This document shows, in pieces, positions 50 through 13,309 of a DNA stretch of 13,309 nucleotides (the stretch's first letter is position 1; each line of letters opens with the position of its first letter). A program made the position numbers and the translations under genes. The stretch is from a virus. The notes under the pieces were generated by a model that did not search any database, was not told where the DNA came from, and worked only from the letters and a program-made list of their open reading frames with translations. The stretch lies in UHGV virus genome UHGV-0148168. One strand, written 5' to 3'.

Positions 50-77
50 ATTCAGAACTATACATATTAACCTCTAA

Positions 78-371
78 TTACTCACCTACCACTTCAGCGA
101 TGATATTTTTATTATTAAAGTTTTTATCGCAATACAGAACATAATTATACTGCATTACACCACCAGATTTAAGTTGTTTTTGCACTTCAGCTTTCATTTC
201 AGGACGATCACGTTCAACGATATTCATAATATCCGCTTCAATTTGAATTTCAACTTCAGTCTGATCTGCAGTCATAGACCATTCGCACAAATCTTTGTCA
301 TAACCCGCCATAGCAGGCTGAGCAGCGCAAGAAGATAAAGCAAAAATTGCAGCAAAGATAAATTTTTTCAT
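78..371 (-). CDS. sp: Spackle (Sp), periplasmic superinfection-exclusion protein that inhibits incoming gp5 lysozyme; 97 aa
   Basis: ATG start with GAGGAG Shine-Dalgarno upstream. N-terminal signal peptide MKKFIFAAIFALSSCAAQPAMA. Length 97 aa and position (two genes downstream of dmd, after gene 41) match T4 sp (61.3) as I recall it. Confidence 0.75.
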   Translation of the reverse strand: MKKFIFAAIFALSSCAAQPAMAGYDKDLCEWSMTADQTEVEIQIEADIMNIVERDRPEMKAEVQKQLKSGGVMQYNYVLYCDKNFNNKNIIAEVVGE

Positions 372-399
372 GATAATCTCCTCAGTAGTTTATGTTTAT

Positions 400-429
400 A
401 TAGTATCTCAATTTCCAATAAAAGTAAAC
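400..429 (-). promoter_or_regulatory. Candidate sigma70-type early promoter for sp: -35 GTTTAC (429..424), 18-nt spacer, -10 TACTAT (405..400)
   Basis: Minus strand reads GTTTAC-N18-TACTAT, starting 3 nt after the stop of the upstream ORF and about 30 nt before the sp ATG. The same GTTTAC-N18-TACTAT arrangement recurs at 6998..7027. Confidence 0.4.
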
Positions 430-431
430 AG

Positions 432-689
432 TTATTTTAAAACTTCTGCATAATCACATGTTACAAACTGTTTCTCTAACTTGGCGATTTTACGAAAGTA
501 TCTTTTGCATTGACGAATCTGTCGCTTTGTAGGGCGCACAGCAAACTTAATAAATTCCACTCGACCAAATGGAGGGCTTTCTTCTGCTGGAATATCTAGC
601 ACCAATTCCCACGTATCTGCAATAAGTGCTTTGAATTGAGTATTTTTCCTGACGTTATACGGAGTAGGTTTAAATAAAACAATATGCAT
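432..689 (-). CDS. Hypothetical basic 85-aa protein at the position of T4 gene 61.4 (between dmd and sp); function unknown
   Basis: ATG at 689..687 lies 1 nt after the dmd stop (TAA-T-ATG), with a GAGG Shine-Dalgarno inside the last dmd codons. The ORF fills the gap between dmd and sp. No motif recognised. Confidence 0.55.
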   Translation of the reverse strand: MHIVLFKPTPYNVRKNTQFKALIADTWELVLDIPAEESPPFGRVEFIKFAVRPTKRQIRQCKRYFRKIAKLEKQFVTCDYAEVLK

Positions 690-690
690 A

Positions 691-873
691 TTATCCTCGG
701 CAATCTACTTCACATACTTTCTTGTCATCAATGAAAGCTTTAACTAATGCTTTATTAACTTCAGCATATTGAGTAGTAGCCCATTGAACGTCATCTTTCA
801 TCATTGTGGTTTCTTTAGTAAACATGCTTTCATTTTTAAACCACCCCATAAAAACTACCTTTACCAATTCCAT
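691..873 (-). CDS. dmd: Dmd (discriminator of mRNA degradation), 60-aa antitoxin that neutralises host RnlA/LsoA RNase toxins
   Basis: Exactly 60 aa, sequence MELVKVVFMGWFKNESMFTKE... matches my recollection of T4 Dmd (gene 61.5). Sits immediately downstream of gene 41 as in T4. GGAG Shine-Dalgarno before the ATG. Confidence 0.75.
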   Translation of the reverse strand: MELVKVVFMGWFKNESMFTKETTMMKDDVQWATTQYAEVNKALVKAFIDDKKVCEVDCRG

Positions 874-894
874 AACAATCTCCCCATTTAACCA

Positions 895-920
895 ACAAGA
901 CTACTATACCATAGTCTTGT
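895..920 (-). repeat. Perfect inverted repeat (9-bp arms ACAAGACTA / TAGTCTTGT, 8-nt loop) in the gene 41-dmd intergenic region; predicted mRNA stem-loop
   Basis: Read directly: plus 895..903 acaagacta and 912..920 tagtcttgt are reverse complements. Located between the gene 41 stop (932) and the dmd Shine-Dalgarno. No U-tract follows on the transcribed strand. Confidence 0.6.
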
Positions 921-931
921 CAGCTTGTAAA

Positions 932-2359
932 CTAAAATTTTAATTCATTTGCCAAAGCATCTAACTGAGCTCGAGTGGATTCATTTCTTTGATAGCGATT
1001 CTGCTCAGCCTGAATCTGCTGTGAACCTGCTACTTCACTCACTTCAGTTGGAGTAGAATCTTGTTCAATTTCTACCCATTTTTGATTTCCTTTTTGAACA
1101 CCCATCAAAAACTTATTCCACTTATTCTTATCGCCATATCGTGATTTGATTTGCTTAATAAGTTGTTGTTCAGCAGCTGCTAGCTCCTCGGTTTCAATGA
1201 CCGCAAGCATAAAATCAGCTGTTGCTGGAAGACCAGCAGATTCTGCAATATCGCTCATGTTAACATCGGAAGAGTCCCAAGCTTGTTTACCAACCTGTGC
1301 TGCAGTCCAAAGAACAGTTTCGGTTTCAACAGCCAGAGCACGCAATTCCTCTGCAATAGCTTTAACAGTTGTGTAACTATTTTCTGAATAAACTCTAATA
1401 CGGCAAGATTTACAAATACCTAGATAGTCGACAATAATGATTGTTGGAACAAAATTCTTCTTGAGCTTTAATTCATTTAAAAGTGATCGAAATGTATTAG
1501 CGTCTGCTCCACCAGTAGGATATTGCTTAACGATTAAACGACCAAGGGTAGATTTCTCACGCCATTTTTCCATTTTTCCTTTATACTCAGCGTAAGAAAT
1601 ATGTCCATCATCAATATCGTCAAGAGAAACATCGAGCATGTTAGCATCAATACGTTTAGCACAGACTTCTTCTGCCATTTCCATGGAGATATAAAGAACG
1701 TTATGACCAAGCTGCAAATAATCTGCTGCTAATGAACAAAGTCCTAATGATTTACCAACGTTAACGCCAGCCATTAAAACGTTCAGTGTTCCAGTCTCAG
1801 CTCCGCCTTTAGTAATTTTGTTTAGAATTCTGAGTTTAAATGGAACCTTACGAGCTTTATTCATATAAGATAGCCAACGTGCTTCATAGTCATCCATCCA
1901 ATCATGACCAACGTAGCTATCAAATGAAATTGATAATGCTTGACGCATAATGTCAGGAATAGCACCAACATCCGGCATTTTCTTATTTCGTTTTTCCGGA
2001 GGAAGCTCAGCATTAGTTTGAATTTCGATTATTTTAGACGTAGCATTAAACATCGCCCTTTGCTGAACATATTTTTCTGTTTCTTTTATTAACCAACTGT
2101 GATCTTCCGGAGAATCAGTCAGTTTTGAAATAAGTGTTTTTACACCAGAATATTCTGTTTCAGTAAATGAACTATTTTCTAATGCAACATTTAACGCATT
2201 AATAGATGGAACGCTATGATACTCATTAACATGAGATTTAATTAATTTGAATGTATTTTTAGCTGGACCACTTTCAAAATATTCTGAATCCATATATGGC
2301 CAAACTTTTGAAAAATAAGCTTGATCAAATATGAGATGAGAAAGAATAATTTCTACCAC
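932..2359 (-). CDS. 41: Gene 41 replicative DNA helicase (DnaB-like, primase-helicase component), 475 aa; apparent GTG start
   Basis: Walker A motif GVNVGKS. Length 475 aa and N-terminus MVEIILSHLIF match T4 gp41 as I recall it. The first codon is GTG (plus 2357..2359 = cac) with a strong AAGGAG Shine-Dalgarno 5 nt upstream. Confidence 0.9.
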   Translation of the reverse strand: MVEIILSHLIFDQAYFSKVWPYMDSEYFESGPAKNTFKLIKSHVNEYHSVPSINALNVALENSSFTETEYSGVKTLISKLTDSPEDHSWLIKETEKYVQQRAMFNATSKIIEIQTNAELPPEKRNKKMPDVGAIPDIMRQALSISFDSYVGHDWMDDYEARWLSYMNKARKVPFKLRILNKITKGGAETGTLNVLMAGVNVGKSLGLCSLAADYLQLGHNVLYISMEMAEEVCAKRIDANMLDVSLDDIDDGHISYAEYKGKMEKWREKSTLGRLIVKQYPTGGADANTFRSLLNELKLKKNFVPTIIIVDYLGICKSCRIRVYSENSYTTVKAIAEELRALAVETETVLWTAAQVGKQAWDSSDVNMSDIAESAGLPATADFMLAVIETEELAAAEQQLIKQIKSRYGDKNKWNKFLMGVQKGNQKWVEIEQDSTPTEVSEVAGSQQIQAEQNRYQRNESTRAQLDALANELKF

Positions 2360-2368
2360 ACTTACTCC

Positions 2369-2707
2369 TTAAAAGAATTTAAATTTTTTCTTTGACCTTT
2401 TATTAAATGCATCTTGCAGTTGCATTGTAATACATTTTTCTACATGAGGAGCTAACTCAGCTTTTCTTTCTTGGTCAAGAACAGCAAAGTCCATTACAAC
2501 CTTTCCATCAACCCAATCCAGTTTAGTTACATACACTATATGTGTAGAACCATCTTCTAGTTTAATGACAATCTCCTGGATAACATTTTCCATAGCGGAT
2601 TTAATTATCTTAAGAGACTCATTAAAAAGACGTTCTTTTCTTTCTTCTTCCCCCTCCGAAGAGGGGGATTCATCGATAATTTCTAAATCTAAATCATCTT
2701 TACTCAT
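2369..2707 (-). CDS. 40: Gene 40-like protein (T4 gp40, head vertex assembly chaperone); most likely ATG start at 2707 (112 aa), with the track's 118-aa version starting at a GTG at 2725
   Basis: Position between uvsX and gene 41 as in T4. The ATG at 2707..2705 overlaps the last uvsX codons; the track's first codon is GTG. The start choice is uncertain; identity rests on synteny only. Confidence 0.55.
   Translation of the reverse strand: MSKDDLDLEIIDESPSSEGEEERKERLFNESLKIIKSAMENVIQEIVIKLEDGSTHIVYVTKLDWVDGKVVMDFAVLDQERKAELAPHVEKCITMQLQDAFNKRSKKKFKFF
2650..2667 (-). other. GC-rich RNA hairpin CCCCCUC-UUCG-GAGGGGG (7-bp stem, UUCG tetraloop) inside the 5' coding region of gene 40, 32 nt downstream of the uvsX stop
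   Basis: Read directly: plus 2650..2656 ccccctc, 2657..2660 cgaa, 2661..2667 gaggggg. On the mRNA strand this is a perfect stem with a UUCG loop and encodes SPSSEGE in the gene 40 frame. Confidence 0.7.
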
Positions 2708-3881
2708 TAAATTCTTCCATATCACTTAACTGCTCGAGGTCAGTTTCTAAATCAGCTGCTGATTTACTTTTACTTTCTGGAGATTTAAATTTTTCAACCT
2801 TTGAGTTAATCAATTCATCAACTTCAGCTTCAACAATTTCATTACTATCAATAGCACCTAACTGATAAGCACGTTTAATAGCATCTCGGAATGGTTGATG
2901 CTTAAATAAAGGACCCCAGAATGTAGTGCAGTTGGTATCTTTTGCACGCCAAGATTTTTCTTCGCGAATCATCTCGCCGGTTTCTTCATCAAGAAATTCA
3001 CGAGCATACCAGCCATTTTTAGGTTTTACTACAAATCCTAATTCTAGAGCCATATCTAACAATCCAGAATAAGGATCGATACCACCGTCAAATTTAACAT
3101 CAATAAAGAATTTACTTTTTTCTTTAACGGTACGAGATTTTTCTACATTTAGAACAAATTGATACCCCTGAAGATCAGAACCATCTTTAATCTGACGCTT
3201 ACCGATAATGAATACAGTATCAGCTGAATACATTACGCCTGTACCACCTGTCATCACGGTTTTACTAAACATTTCAATGGTTTCAATTGTATGGTTAACC
3301 GCAACGCACGGAATATTTTTAATGCTAAAATAAGGAGTAACAATACGGAATAATGACTTCAGTGATTTAGCACGAGTCATATCTGCCACAGATTTTTCAT
3401 TCAAGGCATCTTCCGTTTCTTTCTTAGAAGCCATATTACCAATTGAGTCGATGAATACAATAACCTTTTCACCACGCTCAATAGCTTCAAGCTGATTCAC
3501 CATATCAATTTTCAGCTGTTCAACTGACTGGATTGGTGTATGAATTACTCGTTCCGGGTCAACTCCCATGGATCGCAAATAAGCTGGAGTAATACCAAAT
3601 TCGCTATCATAGAATAGACAAACTGCATCAGGATATTTGTTCAAATACGCTGCAACCATAGTCAAAGACATATTTGATTTAAAGTGTTTAGAAGGCCCTG
3701 CGAAAATAGTTAAACCAGACTGCATTCCACCATCAATCGCACCGGAAATAGCGATATTAAGCATTGGGATTTTTGTACGGATTACATCCTTTTCATTAAA
3801 GAATTTAGATGTAGTCAGTTCAGCAGTCATTTTAGAAGTGGAAGCTTTAATCAAACGGGATTTTAAATCTGCAATAGACAT
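2700..3881 (-). CDS. uvsX: UvsX recombinase (RecA/Rad51 homolog), 393 aa
   Basis: RecA-type Walker A GPSKHFKS. Length and N-terminal sequence MSIADLKSRLIKASTSK match T4 UvsX as I recall it (about 391 aa). Lies between the glycosyltransferase gene and gene 40 as in T4. Confidence 0.92.
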   Translation of the reverse strand: MSIADLKSRLIKASTSKMTAELTTSKFFNEKDVIRTKIPMLNIAISGAIDGGMQSGLTIFAGPSKHFKSNMSLTMVAAYLNKYPDAVCLFYDSEFGITPAYLRSMGVDPERVIHTPIQSVEQLKIDMVNQLEAIERGEKVIVFIDSIGNMASKKETEDALNEKSVADMTRAKSLKSLFRIVTPYFSIKNIPCVAVNHTIETIEMFSKTVMTGGTGVMYSADTVFIIGKRQIKDGSDLQGYQFVLNVEKSRTVKEKSKFFIDVKFDGGIDPYSGLLDMALELGFVVKPKNGWYAREFLDEETGEMIREEKSWRAKDTNCTTFWGPLFKHQPFRDAIKRAYQLGAIDSNEIVEAEVDELINSKVEKFKSPESKSKSAADLETDLEQLSDMEEFNE

Positions 3882-3934
3882 TCATTTTTTCCATAGGCAT
3901 CATTATATTTTCCTCACTGGTTAAAGATAGAGTA

Positions 3935-3958
3935 ATTATAACACAATAAATTTAGGCA
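3935..3958 (-). promoter_or_regulatory. Candidate promoter for uvsX: extended -10 TGTTATAAT (3943..3935) with an upstream MotA-box-like TGCCTAA (3958..3952)
   Basis: Minus strand reads TGCCTAAATTTATTGTGTTATAAT about 50 nt before the uvsX ATG: a perfect TATAAT with a TGn extension, and a TGCTT-like element near -30. uvsX is a middle-mode gene in T4 (established knowledge). Confidence 0.35.
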
Positions 3959-4801
3959 TTAATCAACTGCTATTGGATGAATAGCATTAAACTTATGAAA
4001 TGCTTCTGATTTTTCTTTACGCGAAACACACATGCGAAGAACCTTTAATGGTTCATCTTCTTCACCCAACGATTTTCGTTTTTCAATATTAGAAGTTTTC
4101 CAACGAGCTTGCTCTGGAAACTCTCTATTGATTTGCTCAAGCGCTCTATTATGTTTAGAATTACTACGAATTGAACTACATCCACCGGGAGCGTGTGATT
4201 TTCCAGATACAACTAGATATTTGAACAAGGCCAAATGCGGATAACCTTGATTAATTAAATTGAGAAATGCATACATATCTTCGCATAAATCAATTTTTCC
4301 ATACCCAATTTGTTCTGTCGTAAGTTTTCCGAGGTCATACCATGTATTCGTGAATCCATATGAGTTTTCACGATAATTACCCCAAGATGAAGTAATTTTA
4401 AAAATTGGTAGACGAGCATGACCGTGATAATACCCGCAATCCATGGCATCTTCAACATATTGAATCAATTCATAGAACTGTTCACGAGTTAATTGATTAA
4501 TTTTATCTACGCGCCGTTTATCGTCTCTCTTTCGTATTGAACTCATACGAATAGTAGTATCATCATCAATCATCCATATTCGTTGACCTGCATACATATC
4601 AGTAATTGCTTTACGAGTACCGGAAATTCCATTAACATCATCAGGAATAGTTACAATTTTAGCTCTAGACCCATAAGCATCATAATAAGCTTTTTCTTCG
4701 TGTTCACGCACTACAATATGGGGTTCATAATCAGTCGGAAACATATCAAGGGCAGAAACTGCCCCTACACGCTGATAACTTGGAATTACGAATTGAATCA
4801 T
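3959..4801 (-). CDS. Putative DNA-modifying glycosyltransferase of GT-A type, 280 aa, at the locus where T4 carries beta-glucosyltransferase
   Basis: N-terminal FVIPSYQR followed about 75 residues later by WMIDDD (DxD) is the GT-A fold signature. T4 beta-gt is 351 aa and GT-B, and does not resemble this. Placement between uvsX and gene 42 suggests a hydroxymethylcytosine glucosylation enzyme such as the T2/T6-type beta-glucosyl-HMC-alpha-glucosyltransferase (uncertain recall). Confidence 0.5.
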   Translation of the reverse strand: MIQFVIPSYQRVGAVSALDMFPTDYEPHIVVREHEEKAYYDAYGSRAKIVTIPDDVNGISGTRKAITDMYAGQRIWMIDDDTTIRMSSIRKRDDKRRVDKINQLTREQFYELIQYVEDAMDCGYYHGHARLPIFKITSSWGNYRENSYGFTNTWYDLGKLTTEQIGYGKIDLCEDMYAFLNLINQGYPHLALFKYLVVSGKSHAPGGCSSIRSNSKHNRALEQINREFPEQARWKTSNIEKRKSLGEEDEPLKVLRMCVSRKEKSEAFHKFNAIHPIAVD

Positions 4802-5439
4802 TTAAGTGCCTTACATTTGTCAAAATGGTATCTTGTCATATTTGGCCCACGTCCTTTTAGTCCGCAATGCGGACATATTTTTTCTATCAAATTATGAGGT
4901 TTTCCTTTACGATTTTTAGACATCGTTTCTTTAATTATTTTAGCTTTTTCTGCGCCAAAAATTTCTTCATAAGTTTTACCAGAATTTTCCTTTGCTCGAT
5001 TTATAATTCCATATGCCTGCTCATTTTTACCATACATTGGATTACCTTCGCCTTTCATTCTTTTAGAATGATCAGGACGCTTGATTCCACGAAAGGCATT
5101 TCCGCACTTATATCTTTCTTCTGGAGATAGTTTTTTACCGTACATTCCATTTAATTTGCCTGGAAAACTTCCTCCCCATGCTTCATTCTTTAAATTATAT
5201 GAATCCGGACAATTAGCAGCATCTAAACAAGTTAAAATAATTTCTTCAACCTGTCTAAACATTGGTCCTTCATATAATATTTCTTTATTAAAGGATTTTA
5301 TTCCATATTTCTTTTTAGCATGTTGCCAAACTACACCCGAACCATCATAATTTGGGTTGTGACCATCATGACTTCCTATATACCACTTTTTAGTTTTAGG
5401 ATGTTTATACTTATAAACATGTGGCACATTTACTTCCAT
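4798..5439 (-). CDS. GIY-YIG family homing endonuclease (Seg-like), 213 aa, with NUMOD-like repeats and a C-terminal CxxC zinc-finger-like motif
   Basis: N-terminal VYKYKHPKTKKWYIGS fits the GIY...YIG motif. Repeated G-x-YGK/basic modules (NGMYGKK, NPMYGKN) and C-terminal CPHCG...DKC. The start overlaps the gene 42 end by 10 nt and the stop overlaps the glycosyltransferase start (ATGA), with no own promoter; typical of free-standing phage homing-endonuclease genes. Confidence 0.7.
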   Translation of the reverse strand: MEVNVPHVYKYKHPKTKKWYIGSHDGHNPNYDGSGVVWQHAKKKYGIKSFNKEILYEGPMFRQVEEIILTCLDAANCPDSYNLKNEAWGGSFPGKLNGMYGKKLSPEERYKCGNAFRGIKRPDHSKRMKGEGNPMYGKNEQAYGIINRAKENSGKTYEEIFGAEKAKIIKETMSKNRKGKPHNLIEKICPHCGLKGRGPNMTRYHFDKCKALK

Positions 5440-6170
5440 TTTCCAGTATAATCCTTTTTAGCAATATGAGTTTCACCAGTGTTCCACCAATGGTCAACTA
5501 AATAAAACTGATTTTCGTACACATGAAGACTTCCAACGTTCCATATAATAGAACCTGCTTTATATTGCCGCGATGGGTCGCCTGCATTCAAATCAGATAC
5601 TAATTTATCTAGTACGTATTTTTGCCATGCATAATCATTACGATAGCCTGCCCAGCAGTCATTGCTTCTCATATTAACAACTGCATTGACTTTCTTATCA
5701 CGAATCAGGTACTGTACTGTATTAGTACACATGAAATCTGACATACCATCTTTATTGTAGTCAAATTGCATGGATGGACGAGTATAAATCATGATACCAC
5801 GTCGAGAATCAGGATTTTGACCAAGTTCAGCTAAACACATATCATACTGGGCATAGTTATCTTCTGACCAGATAGCCCAGCCATAATTCGAGTTAATTTC
5901 ACCTTTAGAAGATGCTACTTGTTGCCAAATCTTCGGTGTTTCACCCGGAATATCTTTAACGAACAAGCTCTTAGATTTATACCATTCAAGTTCACGCTGA
6001 ATGTATTCATCATTAAGAGCGCCAAAAATAAACGGTTCATCTGCTACAAATGATGCGCCAATAATTTCAATAGTTTTAACGCCAGTTTTATCAACTACGA
6101 AATCTTTTTCTTTTAATGCAAGCCCCAAATGAAGACGGATTTCTTCAACTGTCATAGAGTCATTAATCAT
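5430..6170 (-). CDS. 42: Gene 42 dCMP hydroxymethylase (thymidylate-synthase fold), 246 aa
   Basis: Length 246 aa equals T4 gp42. The sequence matches my recollection of T4 dCMP hydroxymethylase, including the FMCTNT region carrying the catalytic cysteine. GAGG Shine-Dalgarno before the ATG. Confidence 0.85.
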   Translation of the reverse strand: MINDSMTVEEIRLHLGLALKEKDFVVDKTGVKTIEIIGASFVADEPFIFGALNDEYIQRELEWYKSKSLFVKDIPGETPKIWQQVASSKGEINSNYGWAIWSEDNYAQYDMCLAELGQNPDSRRGIMIYTRPSMQFDYNKDGMSDFMCTNTVQYLIRDKKVNAVVNMRSNDCWAGYRNDYAWQKYVLDKLVSDLNAGDPSRQYKAGSIIWNVGSLHVYENQFYLVDHWWNTGETHIAKKDYTGKWK

Positions 6171-6177
6171 TTAAACC

Positions 6178-6327
6178 TCAATTGATGCATTCATATTTAA
6201 ATTGTAACAGTAATAAACCCCACCCTATGATAAGAGTTGGAATCATAGCAGGAACTGTTACGCTATAGTATATACTTATTATAACCATCAAGATTAAAAG
6301 CAATGCTGCTATAATTTTGCTTTTCAT
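6178..6327 (-). CDS. Small hydrophobic ORF, 49 aa (MKSKIIAALLLILMVIISIYYSVTVPAMIPTLIIGWGLLLLQFKYECIN), predicted membrane peptide; absent from the supplied ORF track
   Basis: Hand-translated codon by codon from the minus strand. The ATG at 6327..6325 overlaps the imm stop (ATGA); the TGA stop at 6180..6178 forms part of the gene 42 Shine-Dalgarno (TGAGG). It exactly fills the imm-42 gap and has two hydrophobic stretches. Confidence 0.45.
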   Translation of the reverse strand: MKSKIIAALLLILMVIISIYYSVTVPAMIPTLIIGWGLLLLQFKYECIN

Positions 6328-6575
6328 TCCTTCTCTCTGATGATAATTACTTGATTTGGCTGTACAGACTTTTTAGTTTCACCCGCAATTGACCAAATAA
6401 ATGTAATAAACCAACCAATAATTGACCAGTTAAACAGTAAAGATGTGAAAAAGATTCCTACTGTCGATTTTGACCCACGCATCAAGGCGATGAACCATGG
6501 AAGCATGTATATAATAATAGCCAACACACCTGAAACTAAAACCATAAAAATTGAACCTGCTACTAAAGTTTCCAT
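6324..6575 (-). CDS. imm: Imm, membrane immunity protein (superinfection exclusion, blocks DNA injection of superinfecting phage), 83 aa
   Basis: 83 aa equals the length of T4 Imm. Two hydrophobic transmembrane segments. Located between genes 43 and 42 as in T4. Its Shine-Dalgarno overlaps the stop of the upstream lipoprotein ORF. Confidence 0.7.
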   Translation of the reverse strand: METLVAGSIFMVLVSGVLAIIIYMLPWFIALMRGSKSTVGIFFTSLLFNWSIIGWFITFIWSIAGETKKSVQPNQVIIIREKE

Positions 6576-6582
6576 GTTTTCC

Positions 6583-6963
6583 TCACTTAGTCAAATTTTT
6601 TACACATGAATTATAAGAATTCACTACATACTCCATCGGAGCATTTTTACCTGTACGCAACTGGTAATTATTAGCCCAATTTGCCCAAAGCACGGCGCAG
6701 TAATTTTCAATTTTTTCTTCGCGTGTAATTACATCTGAATTACGATATGCTTGAGCAGATTCATCTGGACGAATAGCTTCGTCAAAATTCGCCTGCATTT
6801 GTTCTACTGTTTGCTTTGGAGCTTCTTTATAACACTTGACATTAGGATTATAAAATTTGCTTGAACAGTTTACAATTTTTCCTGCATCAGACTGATTTAC
6901 TACCGGTCCTTGAGCTACACAACCAGTAAGACCTAATGCAATAACCAAAATAGCGATTTTCAT
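6583..6963 (-). CDS. Predicted lipoprotein, 126 aa from the ATG at 6963 (the track's 130-aa version starts at a TTG at 6975); function unknown, possibly the imm.1 position
   Basis: MKIAILVIALGLTGC is a classical signal peptide with lipobox L-T-G-C. Four further cysteines in the mature part. GGAG Shine-Dalgarno 6 nt before the ATG. A candidate promoter lies upstream and the gene 43 terminator lies beyond it. Confidence 0.6.
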   Translation of the reverse strand: MKIAILVIALGLTGCVAQGPVVNQSDAGKIVNCSSKFYNPNVKCYKEAPKQTVEQMQANFDEAIRPDESAQAYRNSDVITREEKIENYCAVLWANWANNYQLRTGKNAPMEYVVNSYNSCVKNLTK

Positions 6964-6997
6964 TTCATTCTCCAAATCCGTATTAGTTGATAGTTGT

Positions 6998-7027
6998 ATA
7001 GTACCATGGAAGAACAGTCTTGTAAAC
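6998..7027 (-). promoter_or_regulatory. Candidate sigma70-type early promoter for the lipoprotein-imm-small ORF-42 gene string: -35 GTTTAC (7027..7022), 18-nt spacer, TGG-TACTAT -10 (7003..6998)
   Basis: Minus strand reads GTTTACAAGACTGTTCTTCCATGGTACTAT, with a TG two bases before the -10. Lies downstream of the gene 43 terminator and about 35 nt before the lipoprotein ATG. Confidence 0.45.
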
Positions 7028-7110
7028 AGTTTTGTGAAAAATTTTTTAGGGAATTCTAAGGGTCCAGAATCATCTGTTTTTCATAAGTATAGATTTATAT
7101 TACTTGTATG

Positions 7111-7131
7111 AAAAAGGGACCCGGAGGTCCC
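7111..7131 (-). terminator. Rho-independent terminator after gene 43: GGGACC-UCCG-GGUCCC hairpin followed by UUUUU
   Basis: Plus 7116..7131 gggacccggaggtccc is a perfect 6-bp inverted repeat with a 4-nt loop. On the minus strand it is followed by TTTTT (7115..7111). Begins 13 nt after the gene 43 stop codon. Confidence 0.8.
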
Positions 7132-7144
7132 TAGATTTATTCTA

Positions 7145-9841
7145 TCAGCCAAACAGGAAGTCTAACGAAGCTTTTTCCTCATAATCCATACCAGCCGATT
7201 CACACATACCCGCAAGCGGTTTAACAAACGATTTTTGGAACAAAGTTGAGTAGTCAATCCAAGATAGTACATCAGAACGAATTTCTTTTGGAAGTTCTGT
7301 GCCCGACGGCCAAGCAATGCACTTGTCACCAAATGGATTTCCTTCACGCAATGGAAGAACCATTACCTTATTTCCATCCAAAATTGGAGCTACACCTAGA
7401 CCACTAACAGCTCGACGATAAGTTAGCACACCGCGAATATGGAACGGGCATTTAAATCCTGGCCAACCTTTATCATCATATTTCGCTATATCGTTCGCAG
7501 TTTTTACTTCAGCAATAACTTTATAGTCGAGTTGACGATATTCTTTCTCAAAGTTCTTGTAGTATTCTTGGACAGACTCTTCACCTTCCTGAAGAATACG
7601 ACGAATACTTTCTTCGAGAGCTTCTTGCACTGCTTTTGGTGTTGAACTCTGCTGAGTTTCCATGCCCATGATTTTTAGATGCGGTTCAGCAAATCGCTTA
7701 TCTTCCATATCATAAACGTTCAGAGCATAACGTTTTTTCGCTTTCCAAAATCCACCAACACCCTTTGAACCAAGCGGAGGGCAAGAAATAGCTTCACGGT
7801 CCATATGCATCAGATGCTCGCGATTATTCATATAATCACATAACTCACGATATGCAACATCAATCATAGGTTCCATCTTTTTCTTACCAAACTGATTCAT
7901 GAATTCAACTAAATCATTTTGTTCTTTAAAGCGGTCAAGACCTACTTTTTCAATTACTTTATCTACACAAACATATACCGAATCAGTATCACCTGCTGCA
8001 ATGAAATCTTCATCATTAGTTCCGCATACTTTATTCAGATATTCATTAATTTTACGAGCAATCCACTGAATACCGACTTGGCCAAAAATTGTGATAGCAG
8101 TAGCATTTCGCAAATCATAGTAACGGAAATGAATATTACCAAGAGCACCATAAAGACTGTTAATAAGAATTTTACGGTTTAGCTGATTTGTATTAGCAAG
8201 TGTAGCCGCTTTTTCACATTCTTCAATCAGACTATTGAGAACAGATTCAGTATAATTCGATAGTTCATTTAAGAAATCATCACTGAACTTAACATATCGT
8301 TCAACTTCTGGTTTAGTTGAACAAGACCCTGCGCCTTTCATAATAATCTTTTTAATAGCTTCGGCATTCATTTCTTCAGCGAACATTTTCTTTTTCCAAT
8401 CTTTACGCTGGAAAAATACTTTAGCGATTTCCTTTGGAATGATACCTTCTTGATGCTTATCATACATCCATCCATTCGGAGAACAAGAATATTCATCACT
8501 CGGTTTAGGAGCTGTTCCTGCGATATATTCATGAATTGGATGAACTTTAAACTGCCCACGAATAGTCTCAGGACTAATGTTAACCTGACGAATAATGCTC
8601 GGATACAGAGACGTCAAGTCAAAACTCATAATATATCGACGAGCAATTGGTTTAGGTTCAAACACAAATGCACCCGGAAAACTCTGTTTAACGTGCGAAC
8701 CTTGTTGAGGAATAACCTTATGTTCACCTTTCAATGAGTTAAAAATAATAGCATCCCAAGTTTTAATAGGACTCATTACACCGGAAAAAGGCATTTTAGC
8801 GTAATAAGACATACTTAAAACTAGATCGATAAACCCACGAATTTTATCAATTGCTTGAACTGATTCTACGTCAATGATGTTATAACTAATGTATCGTTGA
8901 TGATTAGTCTCACGAAGTTTATTAATAGGACCGTCGTATGGTAATTTACCTTTTTTGGTTTCATGCTGAGCAACTGATTCCAAAGAGAATGACGGCAAAT
9001 TAGTAAAAGCGAATTTCTTGTACAAATCTAAATAATCAAGAATAGATACGCCATCAATAGAATAAATTTCTTTGCTACCGTACATATTTTGAATTAGTTT
9101 AGATTTTACCCGACCGATTGGAGAGAAGCGTTTCATACTACGTTCGCCCAGAATCATTTTAACACGATTCATGATATACGGAACGTCAAACCCCTCAATA
9201 TTCCAACCGGTAAAAATAGCAGGTCGTTTCTGTTCCCAGAGATTGATATATTCCATGAGCATATCACGCTCATTATCGAATGGCATATAAATTACTCTGT
9301 CAAGAATTTCTTGAGGAACTTCATCACCACCTTCACAGTCAAGCTTAGCAGCTAACTTTGCATCCCATTTTGATACTGAACCGTACATTGAATTCAAAAG
9401 GTCGAAAACATAAAAACGATCGTCAATTGAATCATAATGAGTGATAGCATCAATTTCATATTCAGCTTTCATTGGGTCAGGAAATTTATCACCAGTAACC
9501 TCAATATCACAGTTAGCTACACGAACAAATTTTCGGTCATAAACAATTTCTGAACCATACGTATCACTGATATAAGCGAGTTTAAAATCGTTCATACCAA
9601 GAGCTTCGAGACCGATGTCTTCCATTCGCTTCATCCAATCTCGAGCATCTTTCATTGATTGAAATTTTTGAGGAGCGCAATTTTTACCATAAATGTCTTT
9701 GTACTTTGACTCTTCCTTACAATGCCTAAACATAGTCGGAAGATATTCTACTTCACGAGTACGTTCCTTTCCGTTTTCATCAATATAACGTTCAACAATG
9801 TTATTTCCGACTGTTTCGATAGAGATATAAAATTCTTTCAT
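7145..9841 (-). CDS. 43: Gene 43 DNA polymerase (family B, with 3'-5' exonuclease), 898 aa
   Basis: 898 aa equals T4 gp43. N-terminus MKEFYISIETVGNNIVERYIDENGKERTREVEY matches my recollection of T4 gp43. Exo I motif CDIEV, pol motif A DLTSLYPS, motif B KILINSLYGALG, motif C GDTDS. Confidence 0.96.
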   Translation of the reverse strand: MKEFYISIETVGNNIVERYIDENGKERTREVEYLPTMFRHCKEESKYKDIYGKNCAPQKFQSMKDARDWMKRMEDIGLEALGMNDFKLAYISDTYGSEIVYDRKFVRVANCDIEVTGDKFPDPMKAEYEIDAITHYDSIDDRFYVFDLLNSMYGSVSKWDAKLAAKLDCEGGDEVPQEILDRVIYMPFDNERDMLMEYINLWEQKRPAIFTGWNIEGFDVPYIMNRVKMILGERSMKRFSPIGRVKSKLIQNMYGSKEIYSIDGVSILDYLDLYKKFAFTNLPSFSLESVAQHETKKGKLPYDGPINKLRETNHQRYISYNIIDVESVQAIDKIRGFIDLVLSMSYYAKMPFSGVMSPIKTWDAIIFNSLKGEHKVIPQQGSHVKQSFPGAFVFEPKPIARRYIMSFDLTSLYPSIIRQVNISPETIRGQFKVHPIHEYIAGTAPKPSDEYSCSPNGWMYDKHQEGIIPKEIAKVFFQRKDWKKKMFAEEMNAEAIKKIIMKGAGSCSTKPEVERYVKFSDDFLNELSNYTESVLNSLIEECEKAATLANTNQLNRKILINSLYGALGNIHFRYYDLRNATAITIFGQVGIQWIARKINEYLNKVCGTNDEDFIAAGDTDSVYVCVDKVIEKVGLDRFKEQNDLVEFMNQFGKKKMEPMIDVAYRELCDYMNNREHLMHMDREAISCPPLGSKGVGGFWKAKKRYALNVYDMEDKRFAEPHLKIMGMETQQSSTPKAVQEALEESIRRILQEGEESVQEYYKNFEKEYRQLDYKVIAEVKTANDIAKYDDKGWPGFKCPFHIRGVLTYRRAVSGLGVAPILDGNKVMVLPLREGNPFGDKCIAWPSGTELPKEIRSDVLSWIDYSTLFQKSFVKPLAGMCESAGMDYEEKASLDFLFG

Positions 9842-9880
9842 AGATATTCCTTAGTTTATAGCCCGAGTTATTAGGCTCTT
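9842..9880 (-). promoter_or_regulatory. Gene 43 translational operator: mRNA hairpin (stem AGCCU/GGGCU, 8-nt loop AAUAACUC) plus Shine-Dalgarno AGGA, the site bound by gp43 for autogenous translational repression
   Basis: Minus strand reads GAGCCUAAUAACUCGGGCUAUAAACUAAGGAAUAUCUAUG. The loop AAUAACUC (plus 9865..9872) is the wild-type loop I recall from the T4 gene 43 operator used in the original SELEX experiment. Confidence 0.8.
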
Positions 9881-9899
9881 GATATATTATACTCCAAAT

Positions 9900-9917
9900 A
9901 AGGGGCCGAAGCCCCTT
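9900..9917 (-). other. GC-rich UUCG-tetraloop hairpin AAGGGGC-UUCG-GCCCCUU, starting 2 nt after the regA stop codon
   Basis: Plus 9900..9906 aaggggc, 9907..9910 cgaa, 9911..9917 gcccctt. Perfect 7-bp stem; the loop reads UUCG on the mRNA. Followed by UAUUUGGAG and a TATAAT at 9891..9886. Confidence 0.75.
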
Positions 9918-9919
9918 GC

Positions 9920-10288
9920 TTAATTACCAATCGTATATTTAGGAACGAGTTTCCATTCATGTTTTTGTTTAAAAGAAATAACTCGGAAGTTATTAGTTAA
10001 ATCTTTCATAAAAGTTCTTTGACCAGGAACGATTTCAATCAGTCCCCAATCTTCTAACAACCATGCTATTGAATCACGACGAACTTCATCTTCTTCTGTC
10101 ATTTCAACTTGGCGACCATCCATACGAAGCATTTCTTTAAAATGAACGATATAGTATAGTCCTTTTTTCTGAAGAATATGACAGGACTGATACAGAACTT
10201 TATCTTTATTATTAGCAATTCCCATACGAGTCAAAGTTTCTTTTACTTTCAGAAAATCTTCAGGTTTTTTAAGAGTAATTTCAATCAT
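9920..10288 (-). CDS. regA: RegA translational repressor of early genes, 122 aa
   Basis: 122 aa equals T4 RegA. Position between genes 62 and 43 as in T4. The ATG lies 1 nt after the gene 62 stop (TAA-A-ATG). Confidence 0.85.
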   Translation of the reverse strand: MIEITLKKPEDFLKVKETLTRMGIANNKDKVLYQSCHILQKKGLYYIVHFKEMLRMDGRQVEMTEEDEVRRDSIAWLLEDWGLIEIVPGQRTFMKDLTNNFRVISFKQKHEWKLVPKYTIGN

Positions 10289-10289
10289 T

Positions 10290-10853
10290 TTACCATTCCA
10301 ATGCTAGTTTTTTGAGTTGTTTCTGTTCTTTTACGTTCTTAGTCACTTCTTTCAAAAAATCATCCGTGACTAATCCTTTAAGTTCTTTTAATACTAAAGG
10401 AAGTTTTCCATTTTTAGTAAGAATTGATTTATAGTTAATTGCATCATTTGTATTAACTTGATACCGCTTAGCAAGTAACTTAATAATCAATACTTCGGTG
10501 GAATCTTCAACCAGTTTTGCCCATTTACCATATCTTTTACCACGAGGAACTGCAGCCATTAGATAATTAAAATGAGCTTCATCACTTAATCCAGAACCGA
10601 TTAAATTCATAGCATATACGGCTGGCATGCACTCTGGAAATTGTGATAATGCATTCTCAACCATGTATTTTGAATAATCTTTTTGAGCAATAGAGCATTT
10701 AGTTTTATTATTAATAGCTCCAATTATTTCAAAAAATTCATTTTCAGCTTTTTCCTTGAAAGAATCAGCAGCAGATTGGACAGCTGTCCAATCTTTTGAA
10801 TACCAAGCAACTTGATGCTTGTTTAATTGAATATCATCTTCAAATAAGCTCAT
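10290..10853 (-). CDS. 62: Gene 62 clamp-loader small subunit, 187 aa from the ATG at 10853 (the track's 194-aa version starts at a GTG at 10874)
   Basis: From the ATG the protein begins [22 protein letters not shown], consistent with T4 gp62 (187 aa as I recall). The ATG lies 1 nt after the gene 44 stop (TGA-T-ATG), indicating translational coupling. Confidence 0.85.
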
Positions 10854-10854
10854 A

Positions 10855-11814
10855 TCACTTCCACTGCATTTCACATGCCAATTGAATGAAAAGATATGCT
10901 AAATGTAATTCCGTATTAGCCGCAATTCCATGATACTGATTATTTTCACCAACAATTTCATACATACGAATAATACTTTGCGGAGTTACACGTGAATAGA
11001 TTTCTTCGGCAAGTTTACCCACGAACCACGAATAATCAGCTGCATATTTTGGTGCTAAAGCTCTGAGTTGTTTAACATCTTTATTTTTGAGAGACTCAAG
11101 AACATCATCAATAGCACCACGATCGTTAGTAACCAGTGATAAAATACCAGCATCCAAAACACCTTTAGATGAATAACTATCGAGCTCGCCAATAGTTTTA
11201 CGAAAATCAGGAAAATTCTTTTTAACCAAAGCTGCTACAACTTTCATATCAGCTATAGCAATTCCTTCATGCTTGCAGATTTCAGTCAATCGACGAATCA
11301 TCTGCTTCATCATTTCAATTTTATCTTCATCGGTCGGTTGACCGAATGTAATAACTCGGCAGCGTGACTGAAGTGGTTTAATAATACCATCAATATTGTT
11401 AGCAGTAATAATAATACTACAGTTTGAACTATAAGCTTCCATAAAGGAACGAAGATGTCGCTGAGACTCTGCTAACCCTGAGCGGTCAAATTCATCAATA
11501 ACGATTACTTTTTGACGACCATCAAATGAAGCTGCACTAGCAAAATTAGTCAAAGGACCACGAACGAAATCAATTTTACAGTCTGATCCATTCACAAACA
11601 TCATATCAGCATTTACATCATGACACAATGCTTTTGCTACAGTTGTTTTACCTGTTCCTGGAGAAGGAGAATGAAGAATAATATGTGGAATCTTACCTTT
11701 ACTTGTAATAGATTTAAAGGTTTCTTTATCAAAGGCGGGAAGAATACATTCATCGATAGTAGATGGACGATATTTCTGTTCAAGAATGTGTTCTTTTTCA
11801 TTTACGGTAATCAT
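10855..11814 (-). CDS. 44: Gene 44 clamp-loader ATPase (AAA+, RFC-like), 319 aa from the ATG at 11814 (the track's version starts at a TTG at 11829)
   Basis: Walker [11 protein letters not shown], Walker B VIDEFD, SRC motif LQSRCR. From the ATG the protein begins [17 protein letters not shown] and is 319 aa, as in T4 gp44. GAGGAAA Shine-Dalgarno before the ATG. Confidence 0.92.
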
Positions 11815-11848
11815 AATTTCCTCATTCAAGTTTTAGTGTAAATTATAA

Positions 11849-11862
11849 AGGGCCGAAGCCCT
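11849..11862 (-). other. UUCG-tetraloop hairpin AGGGC-UUCG-GCCCU (extendable to 7 bp with a G-U pair), 3 nt after the gene 45 stop codon
   Basis: Plus 11849..11853 agggc, 11854..11857 cgaa, 11858..11862 gccct. On the mRNA it reads AGAGGGCUUCGGCCCUUU and is followed directly by UAUAAU (11847..11842), then the gene 44 Shine-Dalgarno. Confidence 0.7.
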
Positions 11863-11865
11863 CTA

Positions 11866-12552
11866 TTAAAAATCATGGGTAGAATCAGCTTCAAGAGCTA
11901 CTACATAATTCGCATGTTCACCTTCAAATTTAGCAGCGCCTTGTTTACCTTTTGCCCAGAGCAGAAGTTTATAATTTCCTGGTTGCATTTTCATATTTGC
12001 CATATTGATAATGAAATTAAATGTATTTTCACCATCGTAATCACCAAGAGTCAAAGAATATTTAACACGTGTCAAAGCAGAATCTTCTACTTTATTAAAA
12101 CCGTTAATTACGATTTTACCTTCTTTTACCGTGATAGCAATTGTATCAATTTGCAGACCACGAGATACACGCAACAGCTGTTGAAGGTCTTCAGCTTTAA
12201 TTTCGGTAACAACAGATGCTACCGGGAATGGAATTGGTTTATTAGGAGCAACTACTGTACTCGGATCGGCTGCTGGCCAAAAAATTGTTGAGCGTGCATC
12301 AGCAATTTTAATATTTCCATCTTCTGACTGGGAAATTTCTGCATCATCATTAACTAGAGACAGAATACCGAGAAAACCGTTCAAATCGTAAATTGCTACA
12401 TCAAAATCAATAACGTCAGAAATATTTGCTTCCGCATAAGTTGTACCATTAACTGCGCGAGTCATAATAAATTGACCTGATTTAAGCATAATGCCAGAGT
12501 TAATAGTAGCGAAATTTTTCAAAATATTCAGTGTGTCTTTAGATAATTTCAT
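11866..12552 (-). CDS. 45: Gene 45 sliding clamp (PCNA-like processivity factor), 228 aa
   Basis: 228 aa equals T4 gp45 and the N-terminus MKLSKDTLNILKNFATINSG matches my recollection. Sits upstream of 44/62 as in T4. The ATG overlaps the stop of the upstream ORF (ATGA). Confidence 0.9.
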   Translation of the reverse strand: MKLSKDTLNILKNFATINSGIMLKSGQFIMTRAVNGTTYAEANISDVIDFDVAIYDLNGFLGILSLVNDDAEISQSEDGNIKIADARSTIFWPAADPSTVVAPNKPIPFPVASVVTEIKAEDLQQLLRVSRGLQIDTIAITVKEGKIVINGFNKVEDSALTRVKYSLTLGDYDGENTFNFIINMANMKMQPGNYKLLLWAKGKQGAAKFEGEHANYVVALEADSTHDF

Positions 12553-13260
12553 TTCAATTTCCTATTTACATAATAGTTAGACCAGGACCGTACAGCACCC
12601 TGATAAGATTCGTCGTTAAACCCATTAGCTACTGCAATTTTACGAAATTTATTATAACTCGGTTTTCCGTAAGCATGCCATAAAGATTTTAATTCATCTT
12701 CATGTTCAATCCAAGTTCCTCTAGCTTTAGATTTTCTAAATTTTGATTTGAATTCCGGTAAATTATTTCTAACAGTTGCTTGAATTGAAGCTCTCTGTCT
12801 TCTTTCAGCATTATTCCATAACTCTTTTTGAGATTTAGAAATTTTTGATCTTACACTTTCTGAATTCATTATATCACTAAACTTTTTAGCATAACTACAA
12901 TCAAGATATTTCAATTTCATCTTATTTGAAAGTTTAAGCTTTTTCTCATCGGTCCAGTGATTCTTCATTGAATTAGATATTTTGTATTTTACGTCAGAAC
13001 TATGTTTGTAACCTTTACGAATACCAACATAATCGGGCGTGATTTCAGATTGCGAAAGCTTTACAATTTTTCCAGTTAAAACATTTTTATATGTTCCATA
13101 TCCTTTAGCGCCAATTAAAGTATTTTCATCTGCGTATGCTTTATTAAAATATTTTATATTACTTTTTGCTTTAACTTTTAATTGAAAAAATCTTTCCAAT
13201 TTTCTTGGATCTAATATAGTTTCAGCTAAAATTTTGACGGTATATTTAGTGGTTTTAATA
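12549..13260 (-). CDS. 5'-truncated ORF (at least 236 aa in the window) encoding a lysine-rich protein with NUMOD3-like repeats; probable homing-endonuclease DNA-binding region. The N-terminus lies beyond the window.
   Basis: Motifs YKHSSDVKYKISNSMKNHW and SESVRSKISKSQKELW resemble the NUMOD3 module of I-TevI (HKHSDITKSKISEKMKGKK, as I recall it). The ORF runs open into the adapter; the track's first six residues MCIRDS are translated from adapter sequence. The stop overlaps the gene 45 ATG. Confidence 0.5.
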
Positions 13261-13309
13261 CTGTCTCTTATACACATCTGACGCTGCCGACGACTCCTTA
13301 CGTGTAGAT
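13261..13309. other. Synthetic Illumina Nextera adapter (reverse complement of read-1 transposase adapter CTGTCTCTTATACACATCTGACGCTGCCGACGA, 8-nt index CTCCTTAC, start of P5 GTGTAGAT). Not phage sequence.
   Basis: 13261..13293 is an exact match, by eye, to the reverse complement of TCGTCGGCAGCGTCAGATGTGTATAAGAGACAG. The following 8 nt and GTGTAGAT fit the i5 index and P5 tail. Confidence 0.95.

Follow-up and report, generated by a model that had tools for sequence, protein, structure and literature searches.

The locus between uvsX and gene 42 of the T-even phages raises the question of which DNA glucosyltransferase occupies it in the phage studied here. In T4 (gene order uvsX-segA-b-gt-42) it is the beta-glucosyltransferase gene, beta-gt, and in T2 and T6 it is the gene named ggt. 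We addressed this question in a stretch of 13,309 nucleotides of viral DNA (the window), in which all substantial ORFs lie on the minus strand and are ordered as a T-even replication and recombination cluster. In window order, the features are as follows.

sp, 61.4 and dmd, minus strand: first genes of the window
932-2359, minus strand: gene 41
2369-2725, minus strand: gene 40
2700-3881, minus strand: uvsX, downstream of ggt, a synteny marker (PF21134 T4_UVSX_C, 4.7e-39)
3959-4801, minus strand: ggt (also g-gt or beta-alpha-gt; TAGT family), 280 aa, very probably the second DNA glucosyltransferase, leading to gentiobiosyl-hydroxymethylcytosine (gentiobiosyl-hmC)
4798-5439, minus strand: free-standing gene of a 213-aa Seg-like homing endonuclease, an insertion separating gene 42 from ggt
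5430-6170, minus strand: gene 42, dCMP hydroxymethylase, upstream of ggt, a synteny marker (PF00303, 7.3e-15)
imm and imm.1, minus strand: between gene 42 and gene 43
7145-9841, minus strand: gene 43, DNA polymerase
regA, 62, 44 and 45, minus strand: after gene 43, with gene 45 at 11866-12552
12549-13277, minus strand: final ORF, cut by the contig end

Over at least 80% of its length the window has matches in 489 phage records, among which Tequatrovirus BCH953P4 ranks first (OZ035784; 97.6% identity over 50-13260). Therefore, judged by these matches, the contig comes from a T-even phage of the T2/T6-like kind (Tequatrovirus). Phage homology is confined to positions 50-13260. Bases 1-49 read ...GTCTCGTGGGCTCGGAGATGTGTATAAGAGACAG and end in AGATGTGTATAAGAGACAG, and bases 13261-13309 begin with CTGTCTCTTATACACATCT and read CTGTCTCTTATACACATCTGACGCTGCCGACGA...; both ends are Illumina Nextera adapter sequence. 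The 'MCIRDS' with which the ORF at 12549-13277 starts results from translating adapter and is not phage sequence.

The 280-aa translation at 3959-4801 is uninterrupted, and it is no chance reading frame, as homologues were retrieved down to E = 2.7e-184. Two plus-strand ORFs that overlap it (4032-4244 and 4583-4897) are without support and were taken as spurious. A scan for sigma-70 promoters around ggt gave 10 sites versus 11.8 ± 3.7 in shuffled sequence, which is not above expectation and carries no information on expression. On the downstream side, the 393-aa UvsX of the window matches T6 UvsX when the translations are read side by side; on the upstream side, the gene 42 product is near-identical to T6 gp42. 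The original prediction, which had been made from the letters alone, placed a 280-aa protein between uvsX and the gene 42 region. This placement holds with one refinement: since the homing endonuclease gene at 4798-5439 separates ggt from gene 42, the wording "the gene 42 region" turns out to be accurate.

The sole Pfam match of the protein is PF20691 (TAGT, TET-associated glycosyltransferase; 38.9 bits, E = 1.1e-9, with a gathering threshold of 27.5 bits). Residues 3-207 align with model positions 2-205 of 205, i.e. the full-length model is covered, and nearly all ggt homologues found also carry this domain. Among the PHROG families the protein falls into phrog_842 (PHROG 842; 2e-87), "beta-glucosyl-HMC-alpha-glucosyltransferase", while NCBIfam holds no model for it. 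The gene is present in 479 phage records at 90-99% nucleotide identity, at a common locus, and many of these records bear the annotation beta-glucosyl-HMC-alpha-glucosyltransferase.

A comparison with individual relatives narrows the assignment. The closest of those compared is the protein of phage vB_Eco_EL (Durham collection), EL_047, annotated as a glucosyl transferase and encoded at the shared locus; it is identical at 279 of 280 positions, the only difference being S60 in the window protein and A60 in EL. The T2 protein, likewise of 280 aa, is identical at 270 of 280 positions (10 differences) in three independent T2 records (MH751506, AP018813, LC348380). With T6 (MH550421), 250 of 261 residues agree (96%); altogether 12 positions differ from the window protein, one of them being the amber codon that this record has in place of Q10. 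T6 (MH550421) and the three T2 records all show the gene order uvsX-ggt-42, with the middle gene annotated as ggt or beta-glucosyl-HMC-alpha-glucosyl-transferase.

We collected 52 family members in two rounds of homologue search, reaching down to about 20% identity. From these, a 50-sequence alignment served as the source of all conservation counts and as input for AlphaFold2, because a model computed from the single sequence was unusable (pLDDT 43) and had to be replaced. With the alignment, the model reached a pLDDT of 92.7 and a pTM of 0.90. It consists of a single GT-A domain, an alpha/beta/alpha Rossmann-like nucleotide-diphospho-sugar transferase fold, followed by a C-terminal extension, and its best structural neighbours are all GT-A enzymes. 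According to the model, the window protein is thus a single-domain GT-A glycosyltransferase, as had been predicted from its VIPSYQR and WMIDDD motifs, both of which were located in the translation together with two further conserved elements.

4769-4789, minus strand: VIPSYQR, residues 5-11, first beta-strand and loop of the nucleotide-binding half, a GT2-like 'IPxYxR' motif
4559-4576, minus strand: WMIDDD, residues 76-81 (TGG ATG ATT GAT GAT GAT), containing the DxD motif (D79, D80, D81)
4277-4282, minus strand: E-D pair (LCEDMY), codons 174-175, candidate catalytic base of an inverting GT-A enzyme
4166-4189, minus strand: PGGCSSIR, codons 205-212, family-specific conserved motif, possibly an acceptor or DNA contact

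Five residues are invariant in the alignment (R11, R63, D79, D80 and D81; 50/50), and I6, P7, Y9, R32, Y39, T62 and R212 are nearly so; the window protein carries the complete set. D175 occurs in 44 of the 50 sequences. Within PGGCSxxR (205-212), P205 is found in 38 of 50, G206 and G207 in 44 each, C208 in 41 and R212 in 48. In the model, D79-D80-D81 come after its fourth strand, E74-78. In the PDB, the family profile retrieved a single, weak match of GT2-like type (9jma, E = 0.089), in which IPSYkR is aligned with IPTYNR of the GT2-like glucosyltransferase and DDD with DDD; D175 lies opposite the 'EED' of 9jma in a second HMM stretch that is weak and non-significant. Searching the PDB with the protein sequence alone returned only chance matches (E > 1). 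Since neither the sequence nor the family profile retrieved a solved structure of any TAGT family member, the residue roles considered below rest on the model. As close systems we regard the GT2-like inverting GT-A enzymes, e.g. AvpGT/PglI-like 9jma, TarP (6h1j), SpsA (1h7l) and BcsA.

When sequence, locus and predicted fold are taken together, it becomes clear that the window gene is the ggt of T2 and T6 itself and not merely a gene alike in function. It has in common with the T2/T6 genes (PF20691) the locus, the motifs, the predicted GT-A fold and 96% amino acid identity, and it displays the features of this family that can be read from sequence, locus and model.

The function of the family has been described in detail. 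T2 and T6 have alpha-GT only, and their TAGT enzyme glucosylates hmC that is already alpha-glucosylated, yielding gentiobiosyl-hmC (PMC13216743). The same 2026 NAR paper presents an AlphaFold3 model of T6 TAGT as a GT-A enzyme that is sister to GT2 (PMC13216743) and places the gene at the position of beta-gt in T4; the synteny of TAGT with T4 beta-GT is likewise reported in PMC13390438. In phages EL (by HPLC/MS), BGP and Geo, hmC, alpha-glc-hmC and alpha-gentiobiosyl-hmC occur in the DNA in a ratio of about 1:2:2, and beta-glc-hmC is absent (PMC13390438). Deletion of g-gt from T6 leaves only alpha-glucosyl-hmC, at ~75%, instead of ~72% gentiobiosyl-hmC (2026 preprint, bioRxiv 10.64898/2026.02.25.707755). 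The present analysis supplies the identity of the gene, its orthology and synteny, the fold and the conservation of the motifs; this literature supplies the chemistry, the phenotype of the T6 deletion and the LC-MS data on EL DNA.

On this basis we consider it highly probable that the gene is ggt and that its enzyme makes gentiobiosyl-hmC from alpha-glucosyl-hmC, in the slot that T4 uses for beta-gt. The pathway would begin with gene 42, which makes hm-dCMP, so that hmC would enter the DNA through replication. An alpha-glucosyltransferase encoded outside the window would then add an alpha-linked glucose to hmC, and the ggt enzyme would take a further glucose from UDP-alpha-glucose and attach it to O6 of the first one, giving the beta-1,6-linked gentiobiosyl-hmC. 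Because of the beta-1,6 linkage of the presumed product and the presumed UDP-alpha-glucose donor, the reaction should invert the configuration, as in GT2-type GT-A enzymes. Within the active site, D79-D81 should hold a divalent metal and the UDP diphosphate, which would make the enzyme metal-dependent; the N-terminal IPSYQR strand and loop together with R63 should bind the nucleotide, the role of general base probably falls to D175 in the E-D pair, and the PGGCSxxR motif as well as the C-terminal third, which is basic, may be in contact with the acceptor on the DNA.

The alpha-glucosyltransferase is a prerequisite of this pathway. tblastn found no alpha-gt within the 13.3-kb window. In OZ035784, the closest complete genome, an alpha-gt (91% to T6) lies 5.5-6.7 kb beyond the equivalent of the window, and a search of ~27 kb of this genome revealed no beta-gt. 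By analogy, the phage from which the window derives probably has an alpha-gt, too. Its DNA is expected to be free of beta-glucosyl-hmC and to contain a large share of gentiobiosyl-hmC. None of the tests run produced evidence against this reading. The extent of gentiobiosylation varies greatly between near-identical alleles (T2 ~5%, T6 ~72%, EL ~40%) and is therefore not predictable from sequence.

Variation of this kind directs attention to the deposited T2 and T6 alleles, several of which depart from the family at conserved positions. All three T2 records (MH751506, AP018813, LC348380) have R11H at ggt codon 11, corresponding to window 4769-4771, together with P251S. In T6 MH550421, CAG is changed to a TAG amber codon at ~7951-7953 (window codon 10, 4772-4774). 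Its ggt is annotated as a 261-aa protein starting from Met20 and lacking the IPSYQR strand; the other T6 record is without the amber codon. This Q10amber reflects either a mutation in the stock or an error in sequencing. We considered whether VIPSYQR might lie outside the real protein, as the 261-aa annotation would imply, and rejected this reading: apart from CAG to TAG the surrounding DNA in MH550421 is identical, and the amino terminus is included in T2, EL, the other T6 record and all homologues. In T6 AP018814, one GAT has been lost in frame at ~1165 of the sequence examined (window 4559-4567), which shortens DDD to DD (WMIDDTTIR, 279 aa). NC_054907 gave the same match as AP018814 and presumably shares this deletion. 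We assume it to be the RefSeq copy of AP018814, in which case it would be the TAGT query of the 2026 NAR paper. The window ggt, on the other hand, keeps R11, Q10 and the full DDD.

The occurrence of different damaging changes in two T6 genomes suggests, at the level of the deposited sequences, recurrent loss or attenuation of ggt in laboratory stocks. The R11H of T2 is a candidate hypomorphic change that could explain why T2 has ~5% gentiobiosyl-hmC versus ~72% in T6; in the literature we found no statement that names R11H as the cause. More generally, it is possible, if rather doubtful, that the difference between T2 and T6 and the variation among wild Tequatrovirus isolates are set by point lesions in ggt. 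If that were true, the allele of the window, being intact at these sites, would be a 'high-gentiobiose' allele. These considerations concern the gene family; the window's own allele looks fully ordinary.

The lesions also bear on the alternative that survives best, namely that ggt is present in this phage and weak or inactive, as the T2 allele may be, so that the DNA would be mostly mono-alpha-glucosylated. Such damage does occur at family-invariant positions in deposited T2/T6 alleles (R11H, Q10amber, DDD to DD), and T2 DNA contains only ~5% gentiobiosyl-hmC (bioRxiv 10.64898/2026.02.25.707755). The window allele, however, is full length and retains R11, R63, D79-D81 and D175, and its only difference from the working EL allele (~40% gentiobiosyl) is at position 60, which is a variable column of the alignment (A 18, P 13, K 5, S 4 of 50). 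We therefore give this alternative only a slight chance.

Marginally less probable still is a TAGT enzyme of another specificity, i.e. with another sugar donor, or with bare hmC or beta-glucosyl-hmC as acceptor, so that the adduct would not be gentiobiose. Specificity must vary somewhere in the family, as TAGT homologues are found together with alpha-GT, together with beta-GT or on their own (PMC13216743), and distant members have only 20-30% identity to the window protein. Yet the window protein is no distant member: it shares 96% identity with the ggt products of T2 and T6, and 279 of its 280 residues are those of EL, whose DNA carries alpha-gentiobiosyl-hmC (PMC13390438). It is the enzyme making gentiobiosyl-hmC from alpha-glucosyl-hmC, as in T2 and T6, that we retain.

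A divergent T4-type GT-B enzyme placing a single beta-glucose on hmC, for which only the position in T4's beta-gt slot would speak, is refuted by the tests run: homology to T4 beta-gt was rejected in three ways (BLASTP E = 4.2, i.e. no similarity; hhalign of the ggt family profile, probability 0.08%; no match of the window protein to PF09198 at E <= 1 versus 325 bits for T4 beta-gt), and the model is a single-domain GT-A fold that lacks the two Rossmann domains of GT-B. T4 beta-gt (PF09198, GT-B) thus shares with ggt the genomic slot between uvsX and gene 42, while in sequence and fold it is unrelated to the window protein. Its length of 351 aa (6401-7456 of the T4 sequence examined) agrees with the figure given in the original prediction, and so does its different sequence. 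Both enzymes use UDP-glucose as donor, decorate hmC DNA and make a beta linkage (PMC13216743; established knowledge). They differ in the acceptor, which is bare hmC for T4 beta-gt and the glucose of alpha-glucosyl-hmC for the ggt enzyme. The GT-A rather than GT-B assignment and the distinction from T4 beta-gt were thereby borne out, and the proposal of gentiobiose as in T2/T6 gained strong backing from the shared locus, the 96% identity and the single-residue distance to EL (PMC13390438).

Where the original prediction falls short is solely in novelty. The gene, its locus, the GT-A fold and the product are all published, about 480 sequenced phages carry the gene, and what is described here is textbook T-even biology that has been stated explicitly (PMC13216743, PMC13390438); it constitutes neither a discovery nor new biology. 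Still, which host defences can attack a T-even phage depends on the sugars attached to its hmC: glucosylation blocks McrBC and McrA, the specificity of Brig1 is for alpha-glucosyl-hmC, GmrSD acts on both glucosyl isomers as well as on gentiobiosyl-hmC, and gentiobiose cannot be removed by BapA, a glucosyl hydrolase that acts together with the glycosylase Brig3 (PMC13216743; bioRxiv 10.64898/2026.02.25.707755). A large share of gentiobiosyl-hmC would alter which of the modification-reading defences work on the phage. For this reason, knowing whether ggt or beta-gt is present helps in annotating a phage and in predicting its host range and its sensitivity to defences, e.g. in choosing therapeutic phages.

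The homing endonuclease gene beside ggt distinguishes the window from T2, T6 and EL, in which it is absent at the loci compared. Its stop overlaps the ggt start (ATGA), so that it abuts the ggt start codon. The 213-aa ORF matches the PHROG 314 homing endonucleases (1.8e-31), NUMOD3 weakly, and the group I intron endonuclease model TIGR01453 (1.5e-5) under its cut-off; one record annotates it as SegD. Of the 78 phage records that contain it, 72 have it at 99% identity or more, versus the 479 records at 90-99% for the flanking ggt. Judged by these identities, this looks like the pattern typical of a recently spreading mobile gene.

A second homing-endonuclease-like ORF lies downstream of gene 45 (12549-13260, minus strand; PHROG 655, 5.2e-29) and is truncated by the contig end. 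Beyond position 12563 only some relatives match, e.g. OZ035784 and EC121, and this ORF is therefore another variable insertion. Between gene 42 and imm, a 49-aa ORF (6178-6327, minus strand) matches phrog_3610 (3.4e-26); the T4, T2 and T6 records have no annotation in the equivalent gap of ~150 nt, and in phage EL the ORF is annotated as EL_049. Finally, a terminator-like G+C-rich hairpin, TAGGGGCAGTTTCTGCCCTTG, is located at 4747-4767 (minus strand) within ggt codons 12-18, just past IPSYQR. The identical sequence is present in T6, and it may be coincidental coding sequence.
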